Positions 12,101 through 64,000 are shown, counted from the first letter of the stretch. The stretch is 64,000 nucleotides of DNA from a virus (IMGVR_UViG_3300037634_006988:23916-87915), one strand, 5' to 3'. The notes: generated by a model not told the origin, from the sequence alone. Program-made: numbers and translations.

Positions 12101-15100
12101 TTTAGTGATAATATTATACATGCTCTTTTCAAAAGCAAAATAATATTGTTCAGGTCGAGAATCTTTAACAAATATACTATTTTTATCCTCATCAATGAGG
12201 GAAATCATATCTGTACTGTTAATAACTTCTGGTGGTTGCTGCAATAAAGTATGCACGTATCGCTCGTCAACAGAACTGCTAGCATTTGCGCCAAAACCAA
12301 AACCATAGCCAGTATGTTGATATTGACCGATTGGGCCGAGCCAACCCCATCTTCCCGTATAATCGTTAGAACCAGAAGAAGCGATTGAAGTATCTTGAAC
12401 TGTGAAATTCCCGCCAGAATCAGATGCAGAAACAGTAGCGAAATCCCAATTTAAAATCAAGGTTTCTAGTTGAGGAATTGATTTAACAGCTTTGCTTCCA
12501 AGATTTGCGCCTTGTTCAGTAATGTAGGCGTCTCTATAAGGTTGAGCAGAGCCAAAATTTGTAACATCTTTTGCATGAGCTTGAAGAACGCTGCTTGTAA
12601 GATAGTCCATCCATACTCGCAAAGATGAAGCCTTAATATTACTTTGTTGCAGAACTGTTCCAGTTGTGTTTGTTCTGTGAGCGCCAACAAAAAATCTTTT
12701 ATTTGCCTTTAAGAAATTTTGAGCGTCTGATGCTGCCATAGATGCCGTAACAGCGAAACTATTATTTAAAACATCAAGAACATAATTATAACCTGAAAAC
12801 TCAACGTCGTATTGACCATTATCACTTCCAGACACGCCAGCCGCCAATGGATATTTTTTGGGTTTAATTCGAACTGCAAAATTCCATCGAGTTCCATCAT
12901 AAACATCTTGAAAAACAGAACTGGTAAGTTTGGGAATAACTCCAAGTCCATCATTACTGCAAGTTAATTGAAAAAAGGCAGCCTTTCTTCTAATGTCAGT
13001 ACGAACTGATTGAACTTGAAATTGTCCTGCATCTCCCGCAGAATTGTAAGTTCCCCATGTTGTACCAGGAGATCCAGAAGTGTGGCAACCAAAAATAGAA
13101 GCAGTTACAAAATTAGAGGTAAAATAAACCTCTGTTCCTTTTTCTTTGTCTTTGGGGAAAAACGATTCTAATTCATAAGTGTTTCCACGATATTGAACTT
13201 CTGCGCTTGAGCTAATATAGCCGCGACTATATGAATTTCCGCTAGCCGTTTGCTGAAGAACAACAGCGTTTGTATTTGAGGAGCTGTGAAAATTGGCATA
13301 CTTCTTTCGTATTGTGTTCTTCTCATAATTGTCTTGTAATTTGTATGTAACCTGATCACCATACAGACGAATATTAATCAATTCACTATCAACACCAAAA
13401 CATCTTATGAGATTTCTAAAGGACTTCATTGTGCCCTTTGTTTTATAAACATAAACTAAATTGTTATAAACATTCTGATATATTAAGTTTTTAAGCTCAT
13501 TAACTTTTTGGGTGAAAAGTTTTTTATTATTGCGAGCATCCAAATATTCTAAATCAGAGGCTTTTGTAAAGATTTCAGATGTTAAAAATCCTGAAGAATC
13601 AATAAATCTATTAGCAAATGGAAATGGCTTATCGCTTCCGCTGATATAATCTTTATTTTTAAGCGAAGTAACAGCTTGAGTTTGCAAATAAAGAGTGTCA
13701 AAATAACTTGACATTATTTGAGTTAAGTTTTTTAAAGTGCCATTAGCATCATTTTGGTCCTCTGAGGTTATCCATTGTGGCAAAGAATCAAACATTGAAG
13801 AATTGTTGGTCGCATCATATAATTTACCAACATTCTTTTTATCGTTTAGAGAACTAGAAACTAGCGGATGAGTTGAATATAAAATGGGGTCTGCAAACTC
13901 AGAACTGGCAACAGAAGCAGACACGATAGCAGATCCTGTATTACGCGAGGTAATCGTATATCCATTCCATTCACCATTAGTAACACGGCCAGCATAATCA
14001 ATTACAACAGCATCTTTACTATTAACGCTGGAAGTATTAATAATTCCTTCATTAAATTTATAATAGACCCCTAAATCGGCAGGATTTTCATAACTATATT
14101 TAGTTGAGGCAGAAGTGGCTAATGTAAGATCAGTGTTTGTTCCTCCACCGACTTGAGTAAACCAATGTTGCCCAATTTGAGTTGCTGTTCGTCTTGTTTT
14201 CCAAAATCTAAATTCATCGAGAGAGCCTGATAATTTACCATAACCTTGAACTTCGGAGCCACCAGACACCGGAGCAATAAGAGAGCCAATTTGACCCAAC
14301 ATCGAGCCGGTTACAGTTCCAATCGTTGTTCCACCAGTGTATGTGTATGTAAGTGCGCCGTTTGTATAAAGGCGACCAACCATTTGACTGCCAGTATTTG
14401 CAAATGTAAGGGCGAAATGATTCCACGAACCAGTTAAGGTGCTTCCACTTAAAATAACAACTGGTGGTTCAGTGTCCGCCGCGCCCTGCCAAGAAAAACC
14501 AGCACTTCCTGATAATAATTCTACTTGAAAGTTTGGATTAAGAACATTGCCTTCTGTTCCAGATATTTCTACTCTAAATCGCCCATATCCTGTTGTCCCA
14601 AAAGTTCCACTATTCCACACATCAAGAATAACCTGTCGTCTTGATTCAGAAGCTTTATCAAATCCTGGTTTATTAAGCCAAAACTCAACTGATACGCCTC
14701 CGCTTCCTTCTAATTCAAGATTAGATAAACCTTGGCTAGCAGTGTTATAAACATTTAGGTTATCAAACTGCAAAGTAAGTTCTGGGTTTGTAGTTGAATT
14801 TAAAGAGTAACTTGTGTTATGCCCCTTGAAATAAATCCATTCGTTTTTTGTAGCAGAGTCATATCCTTGAGATTGTTGAGCGCTGAAAGCATACGATTGT
14901 CCAAAATTAATATAACCAGTCGTGCGAGGATATTCATTTTCAAAAATATATCGATCAAGATAAGTTCCCGAAAGGCTCCAGTTAATTTTTTCTTTTAATG
15001 AACCATCATAGGGATATTCATTTAAAACATAGTTGTAAGCATCTTCATAATATTTCTCTGCGGAACCATATATAGCAAAATTTGAAGCAGACGAAAAATC

Positions 15101-19005: not shown

Positions 19006-22000
19006 TTATATTTCGCCTGGCTCCAATGGAGGCATTCCAACATCAATATCACAATCCTCATCATTTGGGCCTCCCATTTCTGCTCCAGGTCCAGAACCTT
19101 TACTAAGTAGTTTGTCCAACCAATCTGCCGGTGGCATTGAGTTTAACCAATTTGGTTCTGGCCTCCAATCCATACCCCAATAAGCCAAACCAAATGGAGT
19201 AATTGGAATTCCAGGCCAGATCATTGGCAATAATGTGATGGGTAAAAGTGCCAATGAAATAAACATAATTTGAGGCTCTGGAATAAAGTTTTCATTAATC
19301 GGTTCAAGCCAAGCATCTGGTGGTTTTTGGGGAGATCCAGGTGCTCCTGGTCCACAATCTTCCTCGCCTTCGGGTGCCTGTTGAGTTTGATTGGCCATTA
19401 TCTGAGCCTGAGCGATTATTTGATTTATTAAATGAATTGCATCTCGAATTTGTTTTGATACCGCAATATTTGTATCAGTCGCCTCCACAAATCCCTTAAA
19501 AATCAACACAGATGTCTTCAAAATCATAATGCCGATAGTCGCCGCCAATCCGCCCCAAAGATGACCATTCATTGCTCCTAATTGTAAATCTAAATTACTC
19601 GGACCACAATCAGTAGATGGATAATTCCCACTATTATAAATGCCAAAGAACAAATCTTTTAAGCGGAATTTGGTTGGATCAAACAACTCACTAATTCCCT
19701 TATAAGAACGAAGATATTCCGAACCGTATATGTTATTGAGAGATAACATTCTGGGAAGTGGAAAAAGATACCTAAATAATGCTTGATATTCACTAGAAGC
19801 TTTTAATTGCTCTATAAGTGTTTGGTGCTTGAGTTTATATTGAAATTCAAAAAACGGCATTCCCCCATTCATACGAAGCGAGAGAGGCACTCTAGAATCA
19901 GCATGACCATTAACTACATCTCTCATTCGAGTGTCTAAATCAACTGGAACTTCCGAACACACTAGTGGAATTACGTTGGCGACTTCTTCAAATGGAGCGT
20001 TATCTGTATTGGATACAAAAAAAGCTTTCTGGTAAAGAGCACCATCAACAGTATTTGAGGCTTCTCTGGCAATTTTACCAAACGGTAAACCTTGATTAAA
20101 TCCGCCCTGCGCAGCACCTCTATAAAACTGTACCGTCGGATCCAACTCGTGATTCCTCCAACAAGAGGTTGCTGCTCCCGGTGGCGCTGGAGCAGGCCCA
20201 AAAGGTTCAGCAAGAACAGGTTGAGGTGGCATGGGATTAACATAAGATATTCTTAATCCAACATGAACACTTTTGAAAAAATCTCCCAACACAAAATAAT
20301 CTCGGTCAGGCGAAACACTTACTCCCAATTCTTGGGCTTTGGCCTCACCACACTCCATAAATCTTGCCAAATCTGTAATTAATGCTTTCGTTAATCTATT
20401 TGGAAGACAATCGGCAGAAAGATTTTGTTGATAATGAGACAAAACATTAGCAGGAATTTCTCCTTGAGAATTAAAACGAGTATTTATATATTCTTGAAAT
20501 TTTTTAATATTAATAACCCCTTTTAAGAATTCGGTACGATCCACGTCTACATAATTGGAGTTTTTCCACTTTACCTCTTCAATTCCTCTTCTGAATTCTT
20601 GATCTCCTTGAAAATGTTGAGTAATTATTTCTTCTGCGGTATCGTTCGATGCAAGATTTGCATTCGTTTCATACGGCATTCCTTGATAATCTAATTCCTC
20701 TACTCGAATATAATACTCTTGAATAAAGTTGCCGTTCTCAAAACTTTTGCCAGGATTGGTCTCAGGTGGTGATTGGGCGCGAGATGTGCCACCAATTACA
20801 ATTTCCTCGAAAAGAAGTTCTCGTCGAAGTTGTCGTCCTTCTTCAGCTTCCTTAAAGTGACGTATCATTATGGTCACATGATTTATCCACTCGTCATAAG
20901 TCCTGCTCAACTCACTCCAAAATGCCTCTGTTTCGTATAGATTTTTAGCTTCTTCCTTTTCCCAAACTAAAATCTTCTTAATAGACAATATATCAAAATC
21001 TAATAAACTTAAATAAGGCATTCCGGTTTCAAGCAAATTAACTGCTCGTTGTAATAATCTATTCACCCACGGATTAGTGTCGGACCTGGGATTCTCTGGA
21101 TAACCAGTTTGTGAATTAAACGATGTGGGTTGCAAATTAAAAAAGCTAAGATTTTTAAAATTGACGCCGACTGTTATGCCTGTATTCTCTTGTAATTCGA
21201 GTCGATCAGGATTACGAATGCCTAAACCTTCTATAAATCCTTCGGATTCTCTTCCGCGAACTATAGCACCCGACGTTCTACTATTATATCCGATGGTATT
21301 ACTAGGACCCCCCCAACTTTCATTTTGCGTTTGTTTTGTTCCATCCCAATGATATCTATATCCCGGATCTATCAATTTAAAAGACAGGGGCGCACCCCGC
21401 CGCTTTGCCTGACCCTGGTTCGACCGATTTCCGGGCTGTGTATTTAAATACCACCCCTTCCAAGGTCCAATAACTTGATTTCCAATTGTAATCCAACGCA
21501 AACGACCGAAATCTTCAATGTCAGGTTCAGCATCAGCGGGAAGCCCAGCGAGCCTTCTCCAATCAAGATCAACATAATCAGCTGGGGCATCAGCACCAGG
21601 TTCGTCGGGATCGGCGTTTTTCCGACGCACTTGTTCCATAGACCTATACCACCTGTTACCCTGGAAGCCAAGATGAGCCGAGCCACGGTCGAATGCAGAA
21701 TATTGGTAATTCAAAGGGCTGCCCCCATCGCCCTGGGCATTTGTGGTGAAACTGATAGAGGGGACTGAAACTGGCGTATCTATGCCAAAATCGTATTGGC
21801 CCGTGCCACGACCGAAATCAATCTCTTCTCCAAATGAATCTCGAATCCATTGAGGGGGTTCAACTCCCTCCCCACCCCATGCGCGTTTATCCCACACTTG
21901 CCCATGTTTAAAAGTCCACGATTTTTGTCCAGATTTTTGTGCTGTTATATCTTTTAAAATTTTACCTGGATAAAAAGAGAGAACATCAACCGCGCCACCA

Positions 22001-25000
22001 GAGTTTGTTCTGGTAAATGTTTTAATATAGTCATCTAATTCTGTTGCCTTGTCAGACCAATTTAAATCATCATGAAAACCAGCAGCAAGAAATCTTAAAA
22101 AGATTGCCATGCTTTTCTGTTCTCCTAAAGATATTCCGTAATTATATGCCTCATCGCTAGTTGAATCTGGAATATTTGGGTCGCCGCCAGGAATTGGATT
22201 TAACGCCAAAATTCCCTTATCTGTTGTCCATGAATTTGAGGAGTCTAAAAGCCCCGCCCCCCGCAAAATCTGACTTTCGCGAGATTTATAAGGACTGTTT
22301 AATCCTGTATTAGATTGTTTATTGGGAGATAATGCTTCAACTCCGGTTATATATTGCCAATCTTCTCCACCTTGCGTTAGGGGATAGCGGGGGGCCTCCT
22401 TAGACCAAATTTCAGCTTTCGAAACTGCATCTGTACCAAAATATTTTCTCATTAACATCCCAACTGGCAAATTCCTTAAAGTGGAAACCCTTTTTAAATC
22501 CTCCATCCATAAACCGGCGATTATTTCTTCCGAAAGAGTTCCATTAGATGCCAATACTAAAGCCTTATCGGCTGGAACCGGATTATTTGAACCACCATCA
22601 CCGGCACTATAAGAATCATTTTCTAAGATCTGATTATTACCTGTGCCCCCATCACGAATGCCATTGAGTTCTCGCGGCACACTATATTCAGGAATCCATG
22701 CAGGCTCTTCTGCACTCTCCTTTTGCAGCAAATAAGAGTCTAGATCTGTTTTTCCAGCCGCCCCAACAACTTTTGACAAACGATTCGAAACACCAAAAAT
22801 TTGGTATCTTATAAAATATTCTAACGCCACATCAAAATTTTTAGTTTCAGCTCGTGGAGGAGTTAAATTGGGTGCATTTCTATTATAAAGATCCAGTGTC
22901 TCAATTCTAAATTCACGTAAAAATGCTTTTTGTGCAACGTCTTTCTTAAGTAATTGCGCAATATACGACACCAACAAAGAATCAACAGAGTCGGGAGTGC
23001 TAAATCGAAACCAATAAAAACAATAAATGGACCTCAACATAACCTCCAAAACATATGTTCTGACTGTTAATAATACCGCCCCACTCAAATTTGCCTTTTC
23101 AAATGGATTATCTTTGTTTGTGCCCAATCCATCTACATTTGGAAAAGAAGCCTCGATACACTGAATTAATCCATATTCATCTTTAATTCTTTGCTTAATA
23201 ATTTCAAAATCTAATAAACTGGCATTAATGTCACACTCTTGCCCTATTTTATTCATAGGTATTAAGTCTAAGGTACTTAATTTACTCAACTCCATTAATG
23301 GAGATTCTGCAATCATTTTAGTAAAACTACAATAATAATCTCTCCACAACCCATCGTAAGCGCTATACTTGATTTGATCTCCATATCTCTTATCGTAGAG
23401 ATAATCTCCCAGAGATTCAGCATTGCCATCGCCAAGGAGGCCAACTCCTGCTCCTCTTAGTGAGAGCCCACCATCAGGTCGAATAACACTTGGTCCATTG
23501 GGCCATGCCTGATTATAATTCCAAGAAACAAATAATTGTTCTTGTGGAATGTGTTGAAGTGTTGGAGAATATATACAATTATGGAACGCCCGATAAATAT
23601 TATCACTTAACGAATCTTCTTTAGTATCTCGATAAACGACAAATGGGGGAGCAGATCCAGCAGCAGTGGTCAATAGAATAGTAATACCATATTGATCTTT
23701 TGGACGATTTCCATTTCGTGCTTCATCTGCTAACGATACGGAGTAAGGAACAATATATTTTATATCATAAGAAGAACCGTGAAGGCTTTGAAAAGCCTCA
23801 ACTATACCACTAATACTTTCTCTAGCAATTTGAGGATCTATTCCTTCTGGTAGAGAAGGTGCTGCGTCTATTGAAGGAATCACCTTGTTCGTAATAAGTT
23901 CCATAGCCACGTCTGTCATACCAGCAGTTTCAAAAAGATTATTATCCACTTTAAAATTATAATAATGGTAAGAATTGTCATTATCGGTTATATTAAAAAG
24001 TCCTTCATTAATGCACATTGTCTGATATGCCTTCTTTAAGCCAGGAGCAAATTTAGATGGTGCCCTTTCTTTAACAGTAATTGGAATGGGAGAATATCCA
24101 TAAAGGTTGGTATACTCAGCTAATTTTTGGCCCCCACGATTTGTTGTATCATATTCTGATGCACGTCGTCTGCCTCGCGATGTTACATATTGTGCTGGCC
24201 CCGGCCGAATCTGAGATATTTCCCATTCATATTCTTGTTCTGCTGTTGGTTGCGTTTGACCAGTGCTCATTTGTCCCCCAACAAGTCGATCTCGTATTTC
24301 ATCACCCGCTGGCCACGCCAAATCGGGATCATCCACCACACCATTTGCTTCTTCTTCTGTGTCTCTACCAACGAGAGGTTCGTTCATCCAGCGTATAATA
24401 TTTTTTCCTGGTTGAGCCGCATCAGCAGGTAATGCACCAAAAGAATATCTTAAGTTTTGATCTTGGACCATGCTTACCCATTCTTGATTTAATTGGCGCT
24501 CTGAAGTTCCATCTGGATTTGTAACCCTTATTGTTCTCTTAATGGGACGTTCTACAATTGGTTGTTTCGTTAATATTGGTATAAGTCCTTCCAGATTTTC
24601 GTTAAATGCCATCGCAATACTATCATAAATTGTACTCAGAACTTTGTTCATCATAAAAATAAGCGATGGATGATCTTTTTCTACTAATCCCGGCTGAATT
24701 CCCCGATGAACTTCTTGTTTAGTTTCTTTGGAAATAAACTTTTTATTGTCATTGGGGTCAGTCATTACCCTTTCGGGTGGAATTATTTCACCTTGCTCAT
24801 CTCGATAAACCATTTTGCAGAAAATAGCAGGAGTCGCATCACCCAGCAAATCCCCCTTTTCCAACATTTTTGCTAAATCTTCAAGGCGTTGCTGTTTACG
24901 AGCACGAGATTTATCAATTTGATCCTTAATTTGAGACGCTGACAATCCTTTGCCTGCCAATAAACTTTGACGCATGGCAGTATCATCAGCATCACATAAA

Positions 25001-27042
25001 CATTTAACAGATTCGGGCATCGCATCCGTAACTTCTTTTACTGCGCCAAGAATTGATGATGGGCCAAACAGTTTCCCAAAATCTTCCCACATTTTTTGAA
25101 CTTTTGGTCGCAAAGAATCCGAACCTTCACCCACATCTTGACCAACAAGAACAACTTTCAATCGTGGAAAATTATCTAATAAATTTGTAACAGCATCTAA
25201 AGCTTCTCGTCCTGTTGCGCAACCCAAAAGTAAGTTGCCCATTTCGCCCGGAGTCAAAACTTGCGATGAAGCATTTACATATTCAGACAAATCAGTCTTA
25301 GCGTTTTCAATTTTTTGTTGTATTTCTTCCTCAGAAGTTTCCGTTCGCACGCCGGGCGTATATTTTGAAGTTCCTGCTAGATCTAAACCAGCAGTTAATA
25401 ATGGATTTTTGGCCCATCGTTCAGTTTCTCCAAGAACTTCTCTGCTTATTTGATTTGCTCCCGATTCTCTCATCATTGTGGAGCCAGCTTCGCCTACAGT
25501 TCCCACAATCATTGTCTTCAACAAAGAATCACCAATATTAAAGGCTCCAAAATTCATGCCATCAAATCGCGAACGACCTTCAGCTTCATTAGCCAATGCA
25601 CATTCGTTGCACGCTTCCAACAATTGTTGAAGAAGTTCAACAAGCATTTGAATTAACATTCCTAAAACAGCCTCAAGAATGCCCATTAGGATTTTTAATC
25701 CTAAATCTTTCATATAATCTGCAATTGGAAAATCATCAGGAATAGATAAAGTTGGTATTGTTTTAGTGAGCAAATTGGCCACATTATCAAAAAAGCTTGC
25801 AGCTTGATTAAGATAAGCTTTTGCCATATTAAGATATTCAAACCCCTGAAAGCCAGAGCATTCTAGTGCGCCTTCGATTAAACTTTGAAGAGGAATCTTG
25901 TTTAAAACATTTTTAAAGATTCCTTTTGATAAATAATTGCCTGGATTTCGTGTCAAATAACCAGTTCCTAGCGTAATTCCATCAGTTATGGTTTGTAAGC
26001 TGCCAACAACAGTATCTCCCACAAATTCTGCTGAAGAATCAAGAACCTTTTGAGCGTTTTTTCGGTCTGCTTTTGACGTAACGGCAAAATCTTCAAGCTC
26101 TAATGTGGTTTTTTGAGGTTTAGAGTTGTCTTCAGCTGTCGTGCTAGGCCCTGCAATACCATCAGTATTGCTTCTGCGCCCTGGTTCTGAAAAATCGTAT
26201 GTTGGGGGGTTTATCACATAATCGTTAAAAAATGTTTCCATTGGAATATTTTCGTTCTTGAGATAAATGTTATAAATCTTGTCCAAGTTAAATAAGAAAT
26301 TAACTGTTCTTTTATTGGTTCCAATAGGGCTTTTTTGGAATTTTTTAAATCCCTTGTAAAGTGTTTGAATTCCTTTTCCTTCATCTATTTGCCCATACAG
26401 GAATTTGTATTCAGAATCAATACCAAAAATTAATAAATCAGAACGGCTTGAATCATAAGAATACCCATTAGATTGCATTAAGCCTGCGAGAGCCATCAAT
26501 GAATTAGAAAAATTATCAGTTTCGTGCTTAAGGTTTAAGCCAAGAACTTTCCCTCGAAAGCGCTGAATATTAGCATTATATTTGTTTAAGAGTTCTGTGG
26601 TTCCTTTAATTTTTTCTTCCAAGTCAAAAGTGTTGAAATACATCTCTGCCCAAGGTGGTGGCAATGCTAAAGGTGGTGGCTCGTCAGCCAATCCATCAAT
26701 AAGGGCCGTTGGCACCGATATTAAAACTTTTATTTTTGAGCCCGGTCGCTCCGAAACATACCAATCTTCGGCAAATGCTGCACCACTGCTCGTTGGGTCA
26801 TTATCAACTTTTTCATAAAATTCTAAAACATTTTGATAACCAACAGGAATAGCATTATCCTTAATATCCTGAAGTTTATCTTCGCTGCCTTCTGTTGTTG
26901 TTTCGCTTGTGACTACAGTAATTGAATATCTATCATCTAGATCGCCTTCAGCTTTTTGGAAAAAAGCTTGCGAACCATCCATTCGTGTCCAATCAACTTT
27001 TATTAAAGGCTTAATGTCTTTTTTTAGATCAATCGTAGCCAT
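19006..27042 (-). CDS. Giant hypothetical virion protein (2678 aa) with several hydrophobic helices
   Basis: Uninterrupted ORF between the putative spike gene and the gp25-like gene; function unknown. Confidence 0.55.
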   Translation of the reverse strand: MATIDLKKDIKPLIKVDWTRMDGSQAFFQKAEGDLDDRYSITVVTSETTTEGSEDKLQDIKDNAIPVGYQNVLEFYEKVDNDPTSSGAAFAEDWYVSERPGSKIKVLISVPTALIDGLADEPPPLALPPPWAEMYFNTFDLEEKIKGTTELLNKYNANIQRFRGKVLGLNLKHETDNFSNSLMALAGLMQSNGYSYDSSRSDLLIFGIDSEYKFLYGQIDEGKGIQTLYKGFKKFQKSPIGTNKRTVNFLFNLDKIYNIYLKNENIPMETFFNDYVINPPTYDFSEPGRRSNTDGIAGPSTTAEDNSKPQKTTLELEDFAVTSKADRKNAQKVLDSSAEFVGDTVVGSLQTITDGITLGTGYLTRNPGNYLSKGIFKNVLNKIPLQSLIEGALECSGFQGFEYLNMAKAYLNQAASFFDNVANLLTKTIPTLSIPDDFPIADYMKDLGLKILMGILEAVLGMLIQMLVELLQQLLEACNECALANEAEGRSRFDGMNFGAFNIGDSLLKTMIVGTVGEAGSTMMRESGANQISREVLGETERWAKNPLLTAGLDLAGTSKYTPGVRTETSEEEIQQKIENAKTDLSEYVNASSQVLTPGEMGNLLLGCATGREALDAVTNLLDNFPRLKVVLVGQDVGEGSDSLRPKVQKMWEDFGKLFGPSSILGAVKEVTDAMPESVKCLCDADDTAMRQSLLAGKGLSASQIKDQIDKSRARKQQRLEDLAKMLEKGDLLGDATPAIFCKMVYRDEQGEIIPPERVMTDPNDNKKFISKETKQEVHRGIQPGLVEKDHPSLIFMMNKVLSTIYDSIAMAFNENLEGLIPILTKQPIVERPIKRTIRVTNPDGTSERQLNQEWVSMVQDQNLRYSFGALPADAAQPGKNIIRWMNEPLVGRDTEEEANGVVDDPDLAWPAGDEIRDRLVGGQMSTGQTQPTAEQEYEWEISQIRPGPAQYVTSRGRRRASEYDTTNRGGQKLAEYTNLYGYSPIPITVKERAPSKFAPGLKKAYQTMCINEGLFNITDNDNSYHYYNFKVDNNLFETAGMTDVAMELITNKVIPSIDAAPSLPEGIDPQIARESISGIVEAFQSLHGSSYDIKYIVPYSVSLADEARNGNRPKDQYGITILLTTAAGSAPPFVVYRDTKEDSLSDNIYRAFHNCIYSPTLQHIPQEQLFVSWNYNQAWPNGPSVIRPDGGLSLRGAGVGLLGDGNAESLGDYLYDKRYGDQIKYSAYDGLWRDYYCSFTKMIAESPLMELSKLSTLDLIPMNKIGQECDINASLLDFEIIKQRIKDEYGLIQCIEASFPNVDGLGTNKDNPFEKANLSGAVLLTVRTYVLEVMLRSIYCFYWFRFSTPDSVDSLLVSYIAQLLKKDVAQKAFLREFRIETLDLYNRNAPNLTPPRAETKNFDVALEYFIRYQIFGVSNRLSKVVGAAGKTDLDSYLLQKESAEEPAWIPEYSVPRELNGIRDGGTGNNQILENDSYSAGDGGSNNPVPADKALVLASNGTLSEEIIAGLWMEDLKRVSTLRNLPVGMLMRKYFGTDAVSKAEIWSKEAPRYPLTQGGEDWQYITGVEALSPNKQSNTGLNSPYKSRESQILRGAGLLDSSNSWTTDKGILALNPIPGGDPNIPDSTSDEAYNYGISLGEQKSMAIFLRFLAAGFHDDLNWSDKATELDDYIKTFTRTNSGGAVDVLSFYPGKILKDITAQKSGQKSWTFKHGQVWDKRAWGGEGVEPPQWIRDSFGEEIDFGRGTGQYDFGIDTPVSVPSISFTTNAQGDGGSPLNYQYSAFDRGSAHLGFQGNRWYRSMEQVRRKNADPDEPGADAPADYVDLDWRRLAGLPADAEPDIEDFGRLRWITIGNQVIGPWKGWYLNTQPGNRSNQGQAKRRGAPLSFKLIDPGYRYHWDGTKQTQNESWGGPSNTIGYNSRTSGAIVRGRESEGFIEGLGIRNPDRLELQENTGITVGVNFKNLSFFNLQPTSFNSQTGYPENPRSDTNPWVNRLLQRAVNLLETGMPYLSLLDFDILSIKKILVWEKEEAKNLYETEAFWSELSRTYDEWINHVTIMIRHFKEAEEGRQLRRELLFEEIVIGGTSRAQSPPETNPGKSFENGNFIQEYYIRVEELDYQGMPYETNANLASNDTAEEIITQHFQGDQEFRRGIEEVKWKNSNYVDVDRTEFLKGVINIKKFQEYINTRFNSQGEIPANVLSHYQQNLSADCLPNRLTKALITDLARFMECGEAKAQELGVSVSPDRDYFVLGDFFKSVHVGLRISYVNPMPPQPVLAEPFGPAPAPPGAATSCWRNHELDPTVQFYRGAAQGGFNQGLPFGKIAREASNTVDGALYQKAFFVSNTDNAPFEEVANVIPLVCSEVPVDLDTRMRDVVNGHADSRVPLSLRMNGGMPFFEFQYKLKHQTLIEQLKASSEYQALFRYLFPLPRMLSLNNIYGSEYLRSYKGISELFDPTKFRLKDLFFGIYNSGNYPSTDCGPSNLDLQLGAMNGHLWGGLAATIGIMILKTSVLIFKGFVEATDTNIAVSKQIRDAIHLINQIIAQAQIMANQTQQAPEGEEDCGPGAPGSPQKPPDAWLEPINENFIPEPQIMFISLALLPITLLPMIWPGIPITPFGLAYWGMDWRPEPNWLNSMPPADWLDKLLSKGSGPGAEMGGPNDEDCDIDVGMPPLEPGEI

Positions 27043-49134: not shown

Positions 49135-49375
49135 TGGAGGTGGGGGGAATCGAACCCCCGTCCTAAATGCTTTAATAAACTGCGTTATACAAGGTTAAAG
49201 ATTAATAACCCCGGTTTTGGGTAACAAGGAAACCGGGAACCCCGCCAAAACTACTTAAGCAGCCATTGGAAGTGCAACATTATCGTTTGCATTTATAAGT
49301 TTAAGCCTTTTAGTGTTTACTCAGACACCCTTGCACAAATCTATCTCGACACCCAGTCGATACCTGGTCACCCCC
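49135..49375 (-). ncRNA. ssrA: tmRNA (one-piece, 241 nt), tag ANDNVALPMAA
   Basis: 5' GGGGGUG pairs with 3' CACCUCC-A, including the G3.U alanine identity pair. GGUAUCGAC motif, T-arm GGGGG-UUCGAUU-CCCCC, pk1, and resume codon GCA after AUAAAU. Tag at 49255-49290; CCA is not encoded. Confidence 0.95.
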
Positions 49376-53646: not shown

Positions 53647-53892
53647 CTAATGTCCTTCTTTTTGTTCTGATTCGTTGGTTAAATATGAAAGATTAAAGGG
53701 CTCATAAGAGCCATCTGTTTTTATAATCTTAGCAAATATAAATTTTCTATTTACGCCTCGGCTCTCGGAATAAATTTCTTGAATAAAACCATATTCTTTT
53801 TTCTTAGTTAAGGTTGTCCAAGACACAAGATCTCCCACCTTAAACTTTTCTAATAAGGGTTCGCCAAATAAATTTTCTCCATTTTCTCTCAT
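53647..53892 (-). CDS. SH3/KOW-like small beta-barrel protein (orphan copy)
   Basis: KFKVGDLVSW...YGFIQEI pattern; TAATG-coupled start. Confidence 0.55.
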   Translation of the reverse strand: MRENGENLFGEPLLEKFKVGDLVSWTTLTKKKEYGFIQEIYSESRGVNRKFIFAKIIKTDGSYEPFNLSYLTNESEQKEGH

Positions 53893-54347
53893 TAACTTGT
53901 AAATGATGTAATATAAGTATACACGCATTTAGACATTGTTGTATAATAATTTTCTTCTTCAATGAAAATATCTAGTCTTTTTGCTAAATCCTTTCCTTTG
54001 CGCCACGCATCAATTTCTTCTGCAAGCACGTCTACTTTATATTTTGATGATTTTTGAAGTCTTTTGTTGCTATTGTAATATGCCATCTTCATTGAAGACG
54101 GATATTTCTTGGCATAAAGCTTTTCGTTACTGTGTAATATTAAATGACCACATTCATGCAAAAGCGCATATAATTGATTTTCGCGGCTTTGTCGCGTATT
54201 TATTGAAATTGCTTTTTCGGTTGATCTAAATTCATCATGACAACAATAATCAAAATCAATTGAAAAACCTTTTTTAGTTGACCACTCAACCAACTTATCT
54301 ACACCTTCGTCGATCCTTTTTTTCTTAACCTTTTGGGATTTTGTCAC
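53892..54347 (-). CDS. ImmA/IrrE-like HExxH metallopeptidase
   Basis: ALLHECGH...EEIDAW. Confidence 0.6.
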   Translation of the reverse strand: MTKSQKVKKKRIDEGVDKLVEWSTKKGFSIDFDYCCHDEFRSTEKAISINTRQSRENQLYALLHECGHLILHSNEKLYAKKYPSSMKMAYYNSNKRLQKSSKYKVDVLAEEIDAWRKGKDLAKRLDIFIEEENYYTTMSKCVYTYITSFTS

Positions 54348-58366: not shown

Positions 58367-58999
58367 TCAGAGGGATACTGACAAGTCAAGCCCAAATACA
58401 TGAGCATGTGTCCACGAATCACTGTTTGAGGCGTTCCACATATAATAAACGCCAACATCCATATAATCCATAAGACTTTTGGATACGCCAACAGACAATC
58501 GGTTTTCTGAAAGCCCATCGCCATTAACAAACACTTCCTCGTTTACACACGGATTTAGACCAAGAACACCATCACCCGTCATTGAAGCAGTAACGCTTGT
58601 TCTTGCCCGCCAATCCTCGCCATCTGTAATGCGAAGTTCCATCCGCGTTCGATTTGACAAGGACATTGGCCCCCAATCACCGAGATTCAAGCCAACACCC
58701 ACATATGGTCGATGCTCACCCGTACTTACATTACGATAACCAAGGCTAGCACTTAGCCAATCCGTTGCAGCATAAGCCACATCAAATTCGGTGTGTTGAC
58801 GAGCCAATTCTGGACCCGCAAGGTCGGCAAACCGAAATTCCTCCTCAATCGCAAGCGTCAAACCATTCGAGAGCTTTCCCGAAACGTTCACGCTTGTCCA
58901 CAAAGCACTTTCTGCTGCAAACACATAGTTTGCAGTCATGAGTGCAGCACCAATGATGATGCCGCCGATTCCAATTTTAGTAAATGTATTTTTGTTCAT
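58367..58999 (-). CDS. DUF2490-like outer-membrane beta-barrel protein
   Basis: Signal peptide, then alternating amphipathic strands: EFRF...GYR...EHRPY...RTRMELR...WRAR...EEVF...ENRLSVG...HVFGLDLSVSL. Confidence 0.75.
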   Translation of the reverse strand: MNKNTFTKIGIGGIIIGAALMTANYVFAAESALWTSVNVSGKLSNGLTLAIEEEFRFADLAGPELARQHTEFDVAYAATDWLSASLGYRNVSTGEHRPYVGVGLNLGDWGPMSLSNRTRMELRITDGEDWRARTSVTASMTGDGVLGLNPCVNEEVFVNGDGLSENRLSVGVSKSLMDYMDVGVYYMWNASNSDSWTHAHVFGLDLSVSL

Positions 59000-59036
59000 A
59001 TTTTTCTCCTTTTTGTTTTGAACTGTTTACTTTTAA

Positions 59037-59114
59037 TTATTTTCGTGTACGCATATAAATGAATGCAGCCACGATTACAACACCAACCACGGCACCAACT
59101 ACTTCAACTGACAT
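59037..59114 (-). CDS. 25-aa single-pass membrane peptide
   Basis: MSVEVVGAVVGVVIVAAFIYMRTRK; strong SD AAAGGAG. Confidence 0.65.
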   Translation of the reverse strand: MSVEVVGAVVGVVIVAAFIYMRTRK

Positions 59115-59139
59115 AAAATGTCTCCTTTCTCTGAATAGA

Positions 59140-59221
59140 TGCTCACAGAGGGACTTGAACCCCCACGCTTATTAGCAAAAGATTTTAAATCTTTCGTGTC
59201 TACCGTTTCCACCATGCAAGC
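59140..59221 (-). tRNA. trnL: tRNA-Leu(UAA), CCA not encoded
   Basis: Acceptor stem GCUUGCA/UGUGAGC-A, D-loop GG, anticodon stem AAAGA/UCUUU with loop UUUAAAA, long variable arm, and GUUCAAGU T-loop. Confidence 0.9.
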
Positions 59222-59238
59222 CATTAAAATCTCCCGAC

Positions 59239-59267
59239 AGTATATCTCAAATATGAGGGTTTGTCAA
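59239..59267 (-). promoter_or_regulatory. Sigma70-type promoter for tRNA-Leu
   Basis: TTGACA-N17-TATACT. Confidence 0.8.
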
Positions 59268-59279
59268 GAAGAATCTGAG

Positions 59280-59669
59280 TTAAGCTAATGTATAATAAAG
59301 CAATTTAACCGCGTGATCAGTACATAAGGTTTTTTTATTGCTCCAATGCATCCATTTTTCTGAGCAATACAGTTGCCCTATCTTACCACACACTTCACAC
59401 GTTTTAAAGCTAAGAGTTCTGCAAAATTTAACTATTTCGTCCACCACATCGTCTCCACCATTATATTCAATTTCAAGCCAGCCTTGTTTTGCTTTTATTT
59501 TTGTAAAAAGGGTGGGAATTAAACTGCTTTTGCCCAAATTCATTTCTTGATATATTTTGATTGCACTCAACATATCTTCAACAATTATATACCAACCGTC
59601 ATCGATTTCAATAATGTTTGGATCGGGCAATAATTCAGGAAAATTCTTATATAATTTTTCAAAGCCCAT
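59280..59669 (-). CDS. Conserved phage hypothetical protein with a C-terminal Zn finger
   Basis: DGWY...KIKAKQGWL...TCEVCGK...TLCTDH. Confidence 0.6.
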   Translation of the reverse strand: MGFEKLYKNFPELLPDPNIIEIDDGWYIIVEDMLSAIKIYQEMNLGKSSLIPTLFTKIKAKQGWLEIEYNGGDDVVDEIVKFCRTLSFKTCEVCGKIGQLYCSEKWMHWSNKKTLCTDHAVKLLYYTLA

Positions 59670-60023: not shown

Positions 60024-60051
60024 ATTATACCACACCTAGAGAGAATGTCAA
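60024..60051 (-). promoter_or_regulatory. Sigma70-type promoter with extended -10
   Basis: TTGACA-N16-TATAAT; the spacer ends in GGTGTGG. Confidence 0.7.
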
Positions 60052-60664: not shown

Positions 60665-60788
60665 AAAAAGTTCCTTGTTCATTTATATCATATTTTATGT
60701 CATTTGTCAAGACCAAAACCATCACACAAAACACAAAACAAAATATAAAAGATATGATACCAAAAATGTCAGTTTTTTTGTTTTTCAT
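60654..60788 (-). CDS. 44-aa membrane peptide
   Basis: MKNKKTDIFGIISFIFCFVFCVMVLVLTND...; its start context GCAAATGAAAAAC resembles the array junctions. Confidence 0.4.
   Translation of the reverse strand: MKNKKTDIFGIISFIFCFVFCVMVLVLTNDIKYDINEQGTFYER
60682..60710 (-). promoter_or_regulatory. Sigma70-type promoter
   Basis: TTGACA-N17-TATAAA. Confidence 0.6.
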
Positions 60789-61005
60789 TTGCTTTCGCAA
60801 TCAGTTTTAATTCGTAGTGTTTAAAAGCCGCTCGCCTTCCGTCAGCAAACAACACTTCCCACTCTTTTAGATGTTCGTCAAGATGTCGGCTTTCTGCAAT
60901 CAAACGAACAATCATTCCTTGTTTGTTGTGAAAAAACCGCAAAGTGGGACTTAGGTCATTATTTTTTATTACTTCAACCAAGTCACCGACCTCCAAATCA
61001 CCCAT
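60769..61005 (-). CDS. SH3/KOW-like array unit 15
   Basis: LEVGDLVEV...GMIV...VLFADG...LKLIAKA. Confidence 0.7.
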   Translation of the reverse strand: MGDLEVGDLVEVIKNNDLSPTLRFFHNKQGMIVRLIAESRHLDEHLKEWEVLFADGRRAAFKHYELKLIAKANEKQKN

Positions 61006-61032
61006 GTTATATAAATATGCAACATTTTGAGT

Positions 61033-61254
61033 TTATGCCTTTGCAGAAAGAGTAGTAGAATTTAAATTCCATTCATCCTTCTTGCCACAAGAATCCAAAA
61101 CCCAACATCGGCCGCCCCAAGACGAGTAACTCAAAAATATTCCATACATAACATAAACTTCAGAACGAACGGCACGCCCTCCGTCATCAAACAGAATTTT
61201 GTACTCCCATGACTTAATAAGATCGCCGCACTTAAAAATAGGTTTGATGTTCAT
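61033..61254 (-). CDS. SH3/KOW-like array unit 14
   Basis: FKCGDLIK...YGIFL...LSAKA; ATGA-coupled. Confidence 0.65.
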   Translation of the reverse strand: MNIKPIFKCGDLIKSWEYKILFDDGGRAVRSEVYVMYGIFLSYSSWGGRCWVLDSCGKKDEWNLNSTTLSAKA

Positions 61255-61463
61255 GGTTCTGCCATAACTCTTACATCCCAACGATAAACCCACTCTTGTC
61301 CGCTCGATGATTCGTCAGCCCAGTAAACTTTTATAGCCCCTTTGGGTAAACCTTTAATTGGGCCGAGATCAGTGATTATGCCAAATCTCTCTTCTACCGT
61401 CCGCCTTCTGTGTAGAGTTACCTTAACAAGACTACCTTTTTTTATGTCATTTTTATTATTCAT
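61251..61463 (-). CDS. SH3/KOW-like array unit 13
   Basis: IKKGSLVKV...FGII...VYWAD...VRVMAEP. Confidence 0.7.
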   Translation of the reverse strand: MNNKNDIKKGSLVKVTLHRRRTVEERFGIITDLGPIKGLPKGAIKVYWADESSSGQEWVYRWDVRVMAEP

Positions 61464-61651
61464 GCTCGCTTCTTTACAGCGCGCCGCCAAAGATGTGATG
61501 TTAATCCGTTGTTCATGTATACTTTTATTATTTTGGTACGTTCGATGCTTGGATCCTCTAAAACTATTCCATAAAAGCCATTATATTCAGAATCGAGAAA
61601 ACGTGGATCTTCCTCAATTATCACAAGATCGCCTGGCTTGAGGTTATTCAT
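61460..61651 (-). CDS. SH3/KOW-like array unit 12
   Basis: LKPGDLVII...YGIV...VYMNNG. Confidence 0.7.
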   Translation of the reverse strand: MNNLKPGDLVIIEEDPRFLDSEYNGFYGIVLEDPSIERTKIIKVYMNNGLTSHLWRRAVKKRA

Positions 61652-61872
61652 TGTTTTGCCTTTGCAACAATGGAAATGGTTCGTTTAAGATGAGTGGTTT
61701 GTCTGCCGTCTTGCCATCGAACCCAAACATATAAATGTGAATCGCGAATCTTTTTGTGTTTTATGGCTTCAAGTACATGATGAGGCACAGGCACAATAAC
61801 TCCAAAGAATCCATTCCGCTCGCCAAGCGGACCTGTCCATTCAACAAAATCTCCAACTTCAAAGTTATTCAT
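61648..61872 (-). CDS. SH3/KOW-like array unit 11
   Basis: MNNFEVGDFVEW...FGVI...VRWQDG...IVAKAKQ. Confidence 0.75.
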   Translation of the reverse strand: MNNFEVGDFVEWTGPLGERNGFFGVIVPVPHHVLEAIKHKKIRDSHLYVWVRWQDGRQTTHLKRTISIVAKAKQ

Positions 61873-62115
61873 TGTTTTGCCTTTGCGACAAGTTGCAAGT
61901 CACTCAATCTAAATGATTCTATTGGATCGATAAAGTGAACCGATAATGAGTCTTTATCTGCGCAATTAACAATACCATAAATTCCCGGAGATCCGTCGCG
62001 CCAAGATTTGCGAAAATCAATTCCGTGCATATTCTTAATGTCCGCCTCGGCGGGGCTCAAAGAAGGATGCCAAACAAAATCTCCAACTTCAAAGTTATTC
62101 ATTGTTGTGCCTTTG
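61843..62115. repeat. Junction-spanning direct repeat, 42/43 bp identical (61843-61885 and 62073-62115)
   Basis: aacaaaatctccaacttcaaagttattcattgtt(t/g)tgcctttg; a 23-bp portion also matches exactly between 61643-61665 and 61864-61886. Confidence 0.9.
61869..62102 (-). CDS. SH3/KOW-like array unit 10
   Basis: MNNFEVGDFVW...YGIV...VHF...LQLVAKAKQ. Confidence 0.75.
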   Translation of the reverse strand: MNNFEVGDFVWHPSLSPAEADIKNMHGIDFRKSWRDGSPGIYGIVNCADKDSLSVHFIDPIESFRLSDLQLVAKAKQ

Positions 62116-62317
62116 ATAATAATTTGAGTGATGTCATACTACCCTCTGCGAAAATTCGATGTTCACCACCGACCATAACTAATTCATATAATAACCTTCC
62201 ACTGGGGGTTTTCTTTATCTTTTTTATTATGCCCACATTATTAAAAACATAACTAAACACTCCTTTATAATTTATTTTAATAAGATCGCCAACATTATAT
62301 CTTTGTTCGTTATTCAT
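62099..62317 (-). CDS. SH3/KOW-like array unit 9
   Basis: YNVGDLIKI...GII...LKLLSKAQQ. Confidence 0.75.
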   Translation of the reverse strand: MNNEQRYNVGDLIKINYKGVFSYVFNNVGIIKKIKKTPSGRLLYELVMVGGEHRIFAEGSMTSLKLLSKAQQ

Positions 62318-62520
62318 CTTGATTTTGCCTTAAGTTTAACATCAGGTGTTAAATACCATCCAATATCGCCATCGAGGAAAAGAATTTTATATTCCTCGGG
62401 AAATGTTACGTTTCTTCCATTTTCTAATATAATTATGCCGGTGCAGAGGAAGTGGTCCATGCGGCCCCTCCGGGGCACCTCCACAAGATCCCCAATTTCG
62501 ATTTTTTGGTTGTTTTTCAT
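62314..62520 (-). CDS. SH3/KOW-like array unit 8
   Basis: IEIGDLVEV...GII...ILFLDG...VKLKAKSR. Confidence 0.75.
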   Translation of the reverse strand: MKNNQKIEIGDLVEVPRRGRMDHFLCTGIIILENGRNVTFPEEYKILFLDGDIGWYLTPDVKLKAKSR

Positions 62521-62696
62521 GCTAGCACCACTAAAACGCTAAGACTTTCCAACTTTCTGTTACCAGTAGACCAGTGGATTACCGCTTCATGGCAGACTGG
62601 GAGAATGTCAATAACCACGCCAAACTCATTTATTCGTGGCCAGCCCTTCCCAACAAGACTACCAACTTTTATTTTTTTTTGTCTTTCGTTTTTCAT
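62517..62696 (-). CDS. SH3/KOW-like array unit 7 (59 aa, below the ORF-track cutoff)
   Basis: Manual translation MKNERQKKIKVGSLVGKGWPRINEFGVVIDILPVCHEAVIHWSTGNRKLESLSVLVVLA; ATGA overlaps at both ends. Confidence 0.75.
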   Translation of the reverse strand: MKNERQKKIKVGSLVGKGWPRINEFGVVIDILPVCHEAVIHWSTGNRKLESLSVLVVLA

Positions 62697-62905
62697 GCTA
62701 GCACCTCAAACCCGTGGTCCATAACCCAACATCTATCTCCATTTTGAAGGTGAATATGGTACTCCACGAACACGTTGGTGTACGCCTCGACTCGAATCCC
62801 ACAAACAATTCCATAAAGGCCGTTCAGCTCTTTCCTCGGTCCCGACGGACCCATATCGAGCATTTTCACCAGGTTGCCAGGTTTTAATTGTTTTTCGTTT
62901 TTCAT
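62693..62905 (-). CDS. SH3/KOW-like array unit 6
   Basis: LKPGNLVKM...YGIV...IHLQNG...FEVLA. Confidence 0.75.
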   Translation of the reverse strand: MKNEKQLKPGNLVKMLDMGPSGPRKELNGLYGIVCGIRVEAYTNVFVEYHIHLQNGDRCWVMDHGFEVLA

Positions 62906-63093
62906 GCTAGCACCTCAAAGTCAGATTTATAGAAGGTGGTCTCGTAGCCGCCTTGAAGATGAATACAGTAGTGAATGATGACTTGGTTAAGCGAGATCTC
63001 CTCACAAACAATTCCATAATATTGCCAAGCCCAACTTTGGTTGTTAATAATGCGAACAAAACTGCCAATTTTAATTTGTTTTTTGTTTTTCAT
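62902..63093 (-). CDS. SH3/KOW-like array unit 5
   Basis: IKIGSFVRI...YGIV...IHLQGG...FEVLA. Confidence 0.75.
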   Translation of the reverse strand: MKNKKQIKIGSFVRIINNQSWAWQYYGIVCEEISLNQVIIHYCIHLQGGYETTFYKSDFEVLA

Positions 63094-63352
63094 GGTGCCG
63101 CCACAACCTCAACTAAATGTGGATATGAAAAACCTTCCTCTCCGTTGCTCCAGTGAACTCGAATACAATCTTCACCACGAGCCAGCATCCCTTTTTCGAT
63201 AAACTCAAGTGTTCTGAGTTTACTATTGGGCCTTCCCCGTCGAGGGCGCGGGTTCTTGAGATATTCAATTACAACACCATATCTCGACGTATTGCTGCGG
63301 GCGGCCCGACTACGAACCATGCTGCCAATTTTAATTTGTTTTTCGTTTTTCA
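63062..63352. repeat. Gene-start direct repeat, 30/31 bp (63062-63092 and 63322-63352)
   Basis: ctgccaattttaatttgttttt(t/c)gtttttca. Confidence 0.9.
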
Positions 63353-63353
63353 C
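63090..63353 (-). CDS. SH3/KOW-like array unit 4
   Basis: IKIGSMVR...YGVV...VHWSNG...VEVVAAP; GTG start. Confidence 0.75.
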   Translation of the reverse strand: MKNEKQIKIGSMVRSRAARSNTSRYGVVIEYLKNPRPRRGRPNSKLRTLEFIEKGMLARGEDCIRVHWSNGEEGFSYPHLVEVVAAP

Positions 63354-63574
63354 GCTAACACCTCAAACTCGTCATGCCGCAACCAACATCTTCTATTATT
63401 TTGCAAATGAATAAAATAACGTGCTTCGGTGGCGCTGCCAAGCGGCCCGCACCAGTATGTTTCAATCTTGCAAATAATTCCATAAAGTCCCCCCCGCTTC
63501 ACCAAGTCCATGAGGCCAACATATGATTTTACTTTCACCATACTGCCAACTTTTATTTTTTCAAAGTTGTTCAT
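63350..63574 (-). CDS. SH3/KOW-like array unit 3
   Basis: IKVGSMVKV...YGII...IHLQNN...FEVLA. Confidence 0.75.
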   Translation of the reverse strand: MNNFEKIKVGSMVKVKSYVGLMDLVKRGGLYGIICKIETYWCGPLGSATEARYFIHLQNNRRCWLRHDEFEVLA

Positions 63575-63789
63575 TATTTTGCTTTTGCCACAAGTTTTAA
63601 ATTTGATGGCCTTTCCCAGTCCTTATCGCCATCATTCCACTGCACAAAAATATCATGACTATCCTCTTCTAGCGGAATGTCAATATTTATTACAATTCCA
63701 AGGTGTTGCCCGCCCCACTCGCCTACAGTAGCGCCAACCCATTCAACCAAATCGCCCTTTCCAAGCTTCCACTTATCTTGGGTTTTCAT
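63574..63789 (-). CDS. SH3/KOW-like array unit 2
   Basis: LGKGDLVEW...LGIV...VQWNDG...LKLVAKAK; start moved to the ATGA-coupled MKTQ. Confidence 0.75.
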   Translation of the reverse strand: MKTQDKWKLGKGDLVEWVGATVGEWGGQHLGIVINIDIPLEEDSHDIFVQWNDGDKDWERPSNLKLVAKAK

Positions 63790-64000
63790 CGTTTTGTCCT
63801 TTCTACCTTGGTTAAATAAGTTGTATGATACCAATCTGCCCAGCCCGTGCCCCATTGCACTTTAGCGAAGGTGCCCTGGTAGCCACGATGTTCAAGCATA
63901 ATAATAATTCCCCACATTATGCCATCAAGATTCAGCCAATTGATAGGGGGTTTCTCCGGTAGGTGATCATATTCGACTAGATCTCCAATATTAAATTTTT
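63786..64000 (-). CDS. SH3/KOW-like array unit 1 (N-terminus beyond the window)
   Basis: Manual translation ...KFNIGDLVEY...WGII...VQWGTG...LTKVERTKR*. Confidence 0.7.
   Translation of the reverse strand, partial: KFNIGDLVEYDHLPEKPPINWLNLDGIMWGIIIMLEHRGYQGTFAKVQWGTGWADWYHTTYLTKVERTKR

Follow-up and report, generated by a model that had tools for sequence, protein, structure and literature searches.

The accessory ("hyperplastic") regions of T4-type phages are made up of small genes of unassigned function, and a short repeat at each gene boundary, the promoter early stem-loop (PeSL), allows whole genes to be inserted, deleted or replaced by recombination between neighbouring repeats (Arbiol et al. 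2010, PMC2839356; Comeau et al. 2014, PMC4122927). In experiments, PeSLs of T4-type phages combine a strong early promoter with a terminator and mediate modular shuffling (PMC2839356; PMC4122927). The locus described here lies in a 64,000-nucleotide (nt) stretch of viral DNA (IMGVR_UViG_3300037634_006988:23916-87915; hereafter the window), in which 15 consecutive genes of one family, each encoding an SH3-like protein of 59-87 amino acids, occupy positions 60769-64000 on the minus strand. Similar to the PeSL regions, it is an accessory region of small genes without assigned function, true PeSL-like cassettes are found directly upstream of the array and, in one case, inside it, and the process of modular shuffling is recognisable, with breakpoints at gene junctions and a 251-bp unit deletion between 45-bp repeats. 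In contrast to the PeSL regions, the genes of the window array overlap by 1-4 nt and leave no intergenic space, promoter or stem-loop at these sites, and the repeat is coding for both neighbours, as it comprises C-terminal codons with a Shine-Dalgarno (SD) sequence, the ATGA, and N-terminal codons. Moreover, the cargo consists of approximately 36 variants of a single domain, whereas PeSL cargo consists of unrelated ORFans.

Other described systems share individual features with the array. Viral multigene families that arise by tandem duplication and act in host conflict include the gene "accordions" of poxviruses and the multigene families (MGF) of African swine fever virus. These families likewise change tandem copy number by recombination, then diverge, and consist of host-interaction genes, but they belong to eukaryotic viruses and comprise larger genes in separate transcription units, whereas the mini-genes of the array overlap in what is probably a coupled operon, and recombination appears to take place at the joint itself. 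Free-standing SH3-like barrels of 60-80 amino acids are represented by YorP of the Bacillus SPbeta prophage (PDB 2heq, PF09629), the PetP/Tsr0524-like proteins and NdhS, of which YorP and PetP are the best or near-best structural neighbours of u10 (units are numbered from u1, the last of the array, to u15 at the window edge). Their Pfam models match no unit, however, and PetP and NdhS each occur in single copy, as subunits of photosynthetic complexes, rather than as members of expanded arrays. Tandemly repeated protein-binding barrels are also known from the Mind bomb REP (SH3_15, PF18346) and MIB/HERC2 domains of eukaryotic E3 ligases, but there the domains are fused in one chain and serve the ubiquitin system, whereas the phage domains are separate genes.

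The only functional precedent cited here for host-defence binding by a small SH3-like phage protein is Orf65 (TifA) of the enterococcal phage phi47, a small early protein whose N-terminal domain is SH3-like; it binds type IV restriction enzymes, inhibits them, and shifts its specificity by single substitutions (PMC11322646). Unlike the array units, Orf65 has two domains, is acidic and is encoded in single copy, and it is likened to them by fold description, not by sequence. A preliminary annotation of the window made from the DNA alone (the sequence-only reading) had stated that no system of this kind was known. Full-text literature searches indeed found no description of such an array, but the statement is too strong in view of the PeSL-shuffled regions and of the small SH3-like paralogues that are common in phages. 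What appears to be new is the scale (approximately 36 units of one domain), the absence of intergenic DNA and the apparent use of a coding junction as the recombination site.

Architecture and extent of the array

Inspection of the open reading frames (ORFs) in the window recovered the 15 mini-genes as the sequence-only reading had described them, and its count of thirteen stop/start overlaps was reproduced: with proximal starts, the junctions comprise 12 four-base ATGA/GTGA overlaps and a single one-base TAATG overlap, and the sole spacer, 27 nt in length, separates u2 from u1. The shared skeleton that had been noted is visible in the alignment of the units (G-D/S-L-V ... G-I-V ... V-x-W ... 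G ... L-x-V-x-A, with two invariant glycines), and the stretches between the conserved strands, which had been called unrelated, indeed fail to align between paralogues. Direct pairwise similarity is significant in some unit pairs only (u10-u13, 1e-11; u10-u11, 3e-8; u5-u14, 2e-6), and family membership was therefore tested independently using a hidden Markov model (HMM) built from 73 database relatives from outside the window, none of them 50% or more identical to any window unit. All 15 units scored between 21.3 and 62.7 bits, the divergent u2 and u6 reaching 21-22 bits, compared to at most 11.1 bits for 300 shuffled controls. By these profile scores, the membership of all 15 units in one family is beyond chance.

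The window ends where its 87,915-bp IMG/VR contig ends (approximately 48% complete according to CheckV), and the array runs past this edge, as had been anticipated. Overlapping contigs were located by exact-protein look-ups. One of these, L015, is 100% identical to window positions 64000-63784, and a second, L013, is 99.3% identical over 64000-63566 (435 bp) and 98.3% identical over 62529-58206 (about 4.3 kb); the two contigs are 99.8% identical to each other over 3,963 bp. Together they hold about 21 further upstream units, and on L015 there are 19 clear and 3 weak units upstream of u15, reaching back to a DUF8033 gene. The composite array comprises about 35-36 units in approximately 7.6 kb, of which the window contains the 3' part. 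A further contig of 10 kb, L014, is made up almost entirely of 36 units.

Whole-unit turnover at the gene junctions

Thirteen loci were compared, on which 200 units fell into 93 clusters at 85% identity. Expressed in cluster numbers, the array order is 6-24-33-73-34-25-74-35-36-37-38-75-39-40-41 in the window and ...6-24-70-71-33-34-35-36-37-38-72-39-40-41 in L013. The latter is without u12, u10 and u9 and has two other units, with flanks that are 98-99% identical to the window, and all breakpoints between the two arrays lie within approximately 40 nt of a unit start codon. The same u10 is present at 98% identity on two other contigs (L011 and L012), behind entirely different upstream units. 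Similarly, L014 and L015 are 99.8% identical bar one missing unit, which was lost from L014 by a 251-bp deletion between 45-bp near-identical 5' segments of adjacent units, with retention of a chimeric junction; after its unit 6, L014 continues with 17 different units in a block wholly unlike L015. These comparisons show that the array undergoes whole-unit turnover, with breakpoints in the conserved junction, among phages whose remaining sequence is 98-99.8% identical. The sequence-only reading had posed as a test whether close relatives carry an identical, static array; instead, units have been gained, lost and replaced between near-identical relatives and, as described below, amino-acid changes are in excess compared to the flanking genes.

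The turnover is unevenly distributed along the array. In the lineage carrying the malate synthase and isocitrate lyase genes (aceBA), the proximal five units are constant in every locus that reaches them, and up to seven in most, while the distal units vary. The array is also where at least six independent assemblies stop, as is expected from population-level heterogeneity. The terminal u1 is the only unit with recognisable orthologues in distant relatives, where these stand at the same array end with 38-74% identity to the window copy (alignment A4), and the loop between its first two strands (b1-b2; S-x-TLRF) is conserved, as one would expect if u1 has a fixed partner. The array as a whole keeps its genomic position in relatives with just 49% identity at u1. 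The alignment of all 15 units offers no stretch of sufficient conservation for a scan of IMG/VR; with u1 alone such a scan gave no match, and one contig was found when the alignment of u1 orthologues was used.

The junction itself is conserved beyond what its protein products share. When 55 coupled junctions are compared, nucleotide identity between pairs averages 0.64 over the opening 15 nt of a unit and 0.41 over the preceding 15 nt, and drops to the background of about 0.27 by 45 nt on either side. The consensus reads ...AAaGGcaaaAca ATG AAnAAc..., with a second type reading TTTGAGGTGCTAGC ATG AAAAACGAAAAACAA, and the conserved stretch of about 45-60 nt spans the last codons with their AAGG/GAGG, the stop/start ATGA and the first ten or so codons. 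SD-like motifs (AAGG/GAGGTG) are located 5-9 nt ahead of each ATG, within the last codons of the preceding gene. Among the window paralogues, third-codon-position identity amounts to 0.54 over the six final codons and 0.40 over codons 2-8, compared to 0.23-0.29 inside the genes, where 0.27 would be random; this conservation of synonymous sites indicates that it acts at the DNA or RNA level. It fits two roles, as the embedded ribosome site of the next gene and as a recombination substrate. The features of a translationally coupled operon are present (13 overlaps, SD sequences in the upstream gene and conserved synonymous sites in the last six codons), and on the strength of the overlaps and the embedded SD sequences it is likely that translation of the units is coupled.

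Viewed from the window edge inwards, all on the minus strand and with scores against the external HMM, the array begins with the SH3-like mini-gene u15 (63786-64000; 43.4 bits), whose 5' end is cut by the contig end and whose full 75-residue form is the protein P0005 on L013 and L015. It is joined by an ATGA overlap to u14 (63574-63789; 71 residues; 53.2 bits), which is 98.6% identical to its L013 copy and forms the TAATG junction with u13 (63350-63574; 74 residues; 62.7 bits). The units absent from the near-identical L013 are u12 (63090-63353; 87 residues; 46.2 bits), which has a GTG start and a long basic insert, u10 (62693-62905; 70 residues; 58.1 bits), which has the best-tested fold, and u9 (62517-62696; 59 residues; 32.6 bits), of which an exact copy is found in the protein database (P0132); u11 (62902-63093; 63 residues; 58.2 bits) stands between u12 and u10. 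The 98.3% collinear block with L013 starts at u8 (62314-62520; 68 residues; 46.8 bits) and continues through u7 (62099-62317; 72 residues; 36.5 bits), u6 with its long b1-b2 loop (61869-62102; 77 residues; 22.0 bits), u5 (61648-61872; 74 residues; 44.1 bits), u4, which has several metagenome alleles (61460-61651; 63 residues; 32.9 bits), u3 (61251-61463; 70 residues; 44.8 bits), u2 as the most divergent unit (61033-61254; 73 residues; 21.3 bits), and finally u1 beyond the spacer (60769-61005; 78 residues; 39.1 bits). An isolated family copy is found outside the array at 53650-53928 (-), in a 93-codon frame with the domain at residues 23-93 (24.3 bits, E 1e-6).

Units shared by the window and L013 also vary in sequence. 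The array genes differ by 42 nonsynonymous (N) and 18 synonymous (S) changes, corresponding to a ratio of nonsynonymous to synonymous polymorphism (pN/pS) of 0.61, compared to 3.5 N and 9.5 S (pN/pS 0.10) in five flanking genes (Fisher p 0.003-0.012 for the contrast). In u6, the two alleles differ by 12 N and 0 S changes, 11 of the 12 being located in the b1-b2 loop. A divergent patch with 89% nucleotide identity coincides with the b2-b3 hairpin in u4, the L013 allele of u13 departs from the window copy in the junction codons at its N terminus and, again as a patch, at the tip of the same hairpin, and the alleles of u4, u6 and u10 found in the database show variation in these same regions. A diversity-generating retroelement was considered as a source of these patches and is unlikely, since no RVT_1 match was found on the contig (about 48% of a genome) and the patch substitutions span all four bases with no A bias.

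Fold, expression and candidate roles of the units

No family covers the window units in Pfam, searched with all 15 of them, or in PHROGs, searched with ten, and 101 aligned family members gave only scattered weak matches to the SH3 clan in Pfam. An exhaustive profile search returned 324 proteins at E <= 1e-3, mostly single domains of 58-90 amino acids. Among solved structures, the family profile matched MIB1 REP (4xi6, E 1.4e-6; 4tse, 3e-5) and HERC2 (1e-3), as well as the KOW domain of Thermotoga NusG (E 5e-4) and, weakly, the KOW regions of the ribosomal proteins eS4, eL21 and uL24.

An AlphaFold2 model of u10, calculated from the 101-sequence alignment, reached a predicted local distance difference test (pLDDT) score of 87.1, with strands at residues 12-15, 31-41, 45-53, 58-62 and 66-68; the N-terminal tail is of low model confidence, disordered and rich in Lys and Asn. 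The closest structures in the VIA comparison were DSIF KOW6-7 (Z 9.2, root-mean-square deviation 1.7 over 56 residues) and YorP (Z 8.7), with Spt5 and NusG KOW at Z 8.0-8.1 and MIB1 REP at Z 8.0, while the top Foldseek matches, with TMq around 0.7, were PetP (0.73), YorP (0.71) and nitrile-hydratase beta, these three within 0.70-0.73, together with CPH and Spt5 KOW. Many uncharacterised small phage proteins in BFVD are shaped like u10, which indicates that small SH3-like paralogue families are common in phages, and the neighbours in the Atlas are viral hypothetical proteins together with YorP and Tsr0524-like clusters. The model of u6 was less well defined (pLDDT 77.7), with strands at residues 9-13, 39-48, 53-57 and 70-73, the fourth strand uncalled and the b1-b2 loop of low confidence. 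The five-stranded SH3/KOW/Tudor-like barrel that the sequence-only reading had proposed for every unit is thus firmly predicted for u10 (pLDDT 87, Z 9.2) and agrees with the profile match to MIB1 REP, but only four strands and weak structural matches were obtained for u6; the proposal is supported for the whole family and firm for one unit only. The most fitting description is that of an uncurated family of the SH3 clan with a distant relationship to the Mind bomb repeat.

Membership in several named families was rejected. No window unit matches SH3_15 (PF18346) or MIB_HERC2 (PF06701) at E <= 1, and among the 101 family members two match MIB_HERC2 (best E 3e-4), with no SH3_15 match listed. 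No window unit attains the Pfam thresholds, and MIB1 REP is reached only by the family profile, which denotes a remote relation rather than membership. The likeness to YorP (PF09629) is one of fold and language model, with no unit matching at E <= 1, and the likeness to KOW (PF00467) is structural only, with no window unit scoring and one of the 101 members at E 0.009. Finally, the Gp54 phage antiviral trigger protein (PF25180) gave no match at E <= 1 in a six-frame search of the 87.9-kb contig.

The resemblance to KOW domains could mean that the units are KOW-like regulators, which would bind the ribosome (S10), Rho, RNA polymerase or RNA and thereby uncouple or redirect host transcription and translation. 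The NusG profile match and the weaker ribosomal ones, the DSIF, Spt5 and NusG structures among the top neighbours and the predominance of basic units (54% of the 200 have an isoelectric point (pI) above 8) are all consistent with such a role, and one fused multi-repeat relative carries the JGI name "NusG". However, the fold match is generic, as Tudor, PetP, NdhS and YorP give equally good scores, and no unit reaches the Pfam KOW threshold. The pI values of the units range from 4.9 to 10.3 and a quarter of the units are acidic, which argues against one common nucleic-acid ligand, and a single conserved target would leave at least 93 unit types and their strain-level turnover unexplained. We regard a regulatory role of this kind as unlikely.

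The family profile also matches very long proteins (P0037, P0038, P0043 and P0044) with 4-20 tandem SH3-like repeats, the longest count being that of P0037 (2380 amino acids, 20 matching stretches), and two-domain fused forms exist (P0047, P0082, P0095 and P0096). The sources of the long proteins are a dinoflagellate (Prorocentrum), an insect record (Diaphorina) and unplaced metagenome contigs, and they are treated here as generic SH3-repeat proteins, which may be true kin or may share only the generic SH3 pattern. The array might be a split version of such multi-repeat proteins, its products being protomers of one mixed oligomer or chain. The long and the fused forms would be in keeping with this, and translational coupling is typical of complex subunits. 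A defined assembly is nevertheless hard to reconcile with unit number and identity that vary between near-identical phages, and the eukaryotic or unplaced origin of the long proteins weakens the comparison; this is the least probable of the explanations considered, and we give it little credence.

Regarding expression, near-identical PeSL-like cassettes are found on L015 at 87-3965 and 7029-7057: 11 are located upstream of the array, each before a small gene, and one is located inside the array, directly ahead of a family unit (L015/L013 internal gap). The cassettes consist of an AT-rich stretch, TTGACA-N17-GATAAT with an extended TG, a GAACCC/GGGTTC inverted repeat over the -10 box, an SD sequence and ATG. 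Their consensus has no match in the 64-kb window, and the interior of the window array contains no coding-strand promoter match of 10/12 or better to a consensus that is of the E. coli type. Strong consensus promoters were found downstream of the array at 60051, 59706 and 59267. In the same region, a strong terminator hairpin at 59723-59696 (-), with an 11-bp stem and T8, lies between the KTSC gene and a 129-aa gene and overlaps the -35 box (TTGGCA) of the next promoter (59723-59677), a PeSL-like layout downstream of the array. From these sequence signals, the operon is likely to be transcribed early by the host sigma-70 RNA polymerase as one long polycistronic message.

The best explanation of the locus as a whole, to which we assign a probability of roughly 0.5, combines an early-region operon, unit turnover and a panel of binders. 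Each gene encodes one free-standing domain of 59-87 amino acids, with a core common to the units, a barrel in the best-tested one, and a unit-specific b1-b2 (RT-like) loop and b2-b3 tip, and whole units are deleted, inserted or replaced at the coding junction between near-identical phages. The operon is likely to be transcribed early by the host sigma-70 RNA polymerase and its translation to be coupled from gene to gene. Each unit would have its own target among the host factors that vary between strains, for instance a defence protein, a sensor or a takeover target, and array content would track the host population. That the units form a diversified panel of small protein binders of host factors is proposed tentatively, at somewhat less than even odds; the wide range of pI values speaks for varied binding targets. 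A more far-reaching version, in which approximately 36 co-expressed binders would constitute a recombination-driven counter-immunity repertoire, the junction would be its cassette-exchange site and its content would record host defences, appears rather doubtful.

Several observations weigh against the binder-panel explanation. The fold models cover two units, u10 and u6, and the latter found the same barrel classes in Foldseek with weak matches (E 0.35 or worse, TMq <=0.54). The promoter calls presuppose a consensus of the E. coli type. The pN/pS of 0.61 is also compatible with relaxed constraint, and small gene conversions, instead of selected point changes, could account for the dense multi-base patches. 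The expectation of the sequence-only reading that selection would distinguish loops from strands was met in part: patches are visible in the b1-b2 loop and at the b2-b3 tip, but when allelic changes were split between strand and non-strand positions the difference was not significant (17/379 vs 31/551, p = 0.55), in a test made blunt by the u10 model, in which the long b2-b3 hairpin is classed as strand. Given this blunt test and the possible micro-conversions, the data denote a patchy amino-acid excess rather than demonstrated positive selection. Finally, the L013 copy of u3 (L013 6051-6263) has a premature stop at codon 60, which is Tyr in the window, and is either a decaying unit or the product of a sequencing error.

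Some of these observations could also be read as signs of a largely neutral gene accordion, in which unequal crossing-over at the junction repeats would generate redundant, drifting copies and perhaps only u1 would be functionally fixed. A pN/pS below 1, the interrupted u3, the loss of whole units without visible compensation and the restriction of recognisable distant orthologues to u1 would all be in line with such drift. However, nearly all 200 units on the 13 loci keep an open frame and the core motif, with HMM scores far above those of shuffled sequences, and the genomic position of the array is held even where identity at u1 is only 49%. Synonymous sites between paralogues are saturated (third-position identity 0.23-0.29, random 0.27) and yet the fold is kept, which requires long purifying selection on the core, and the 12 N to 0 S changes in u6 also speak against drift. 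A neutral accordion is thus considered improbable, if somewhat less so than the regulatory role discussed above.

Carrier phage and significance of the array

The window encodes a baseplate wedge protein, PhoH, glycosyltransferases, a KTSC protein, a DUF2490 protein and an RNase T-like exonuclease, together with a transfer-messenger RNA (tmRNA) and a tRNA-Leu. The carrier is an uncultured marine T4-type myovirus of approximately 180 kb, with the array in its accessory ("hyperplastic") early region. Family members were found by the profile search in marine metagenomes only, and neither megablast of the region nor tblastn of u14 gave a match among GenBank phages. The tmRNA at 49135-49375 (-) has the tag peptide ANDNVALPMAA and might help to place the phage host; the tRNA-Leu(UAA) is located at 59140-59221 (-). 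Two giant ORFs of 3044 and 2678 amino acids, at 6113-15247 and 19006-27042 (-), adjoin the baseplate wedge gene.

Distant relatives (L005-L010 and L019) show the same synteny around the array. In L005-L010, malate synthase and isocitrate lyase genes are inserted between the 129-aa gene and the DUF2490 gene (L005 9221-11994), and in L019 two ORFs of corresponding lengths (502 and 411 amino acids, sizes alone being compared) follow the 131-aa gene. The counterpart of this site in the window, 58999-59280, holds the tRNA-Leu only, which means that members of this phage group differ by an insertion or deletion of the glyoxylate-shunt pair. A 179-kb T4-related environmental genome bearing aceBA (Nishimura et al. 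2017, PMC5332604) matches both the synteny and the gene pair. In L005, a 75-aa Cys-rich, zinc-ribbon-like ORF (CxxC...CxxC; 6865-7092), which is not a family member, interrupts the array of the aceBA lineage, and L006-L010 have a 195-bp gap at this site. Distant members of the family are also arrayed, on L017, L018 and L019, which makes the SH3-like mini-gene array a trait that recurs within a phage group rather than an isolated case.

The existence of the array explains why metagenome assemblies break at this point in an abundant marine phage lineage. Its junction, in which stop codon, ribosome site, start codon and apparent recombination site are combined, extends PeSL shuffling to an arrangement without intergenic DNA. 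Most early accessory genes of large phages are without assigned function, and the locus offers an unusually clean natural experiment in this respect: one small, easily expressed scaffold in dozens of natural variants per genome, with at least 93 distinct units in the loci sampled. Should the units prove to bind targets in host defence or takeover, the family would supply natural inhibitors in abundance, and the array, if the proposed explanation is true, would provide a model for the diversification of phage binders without a mutagenic retroelement.

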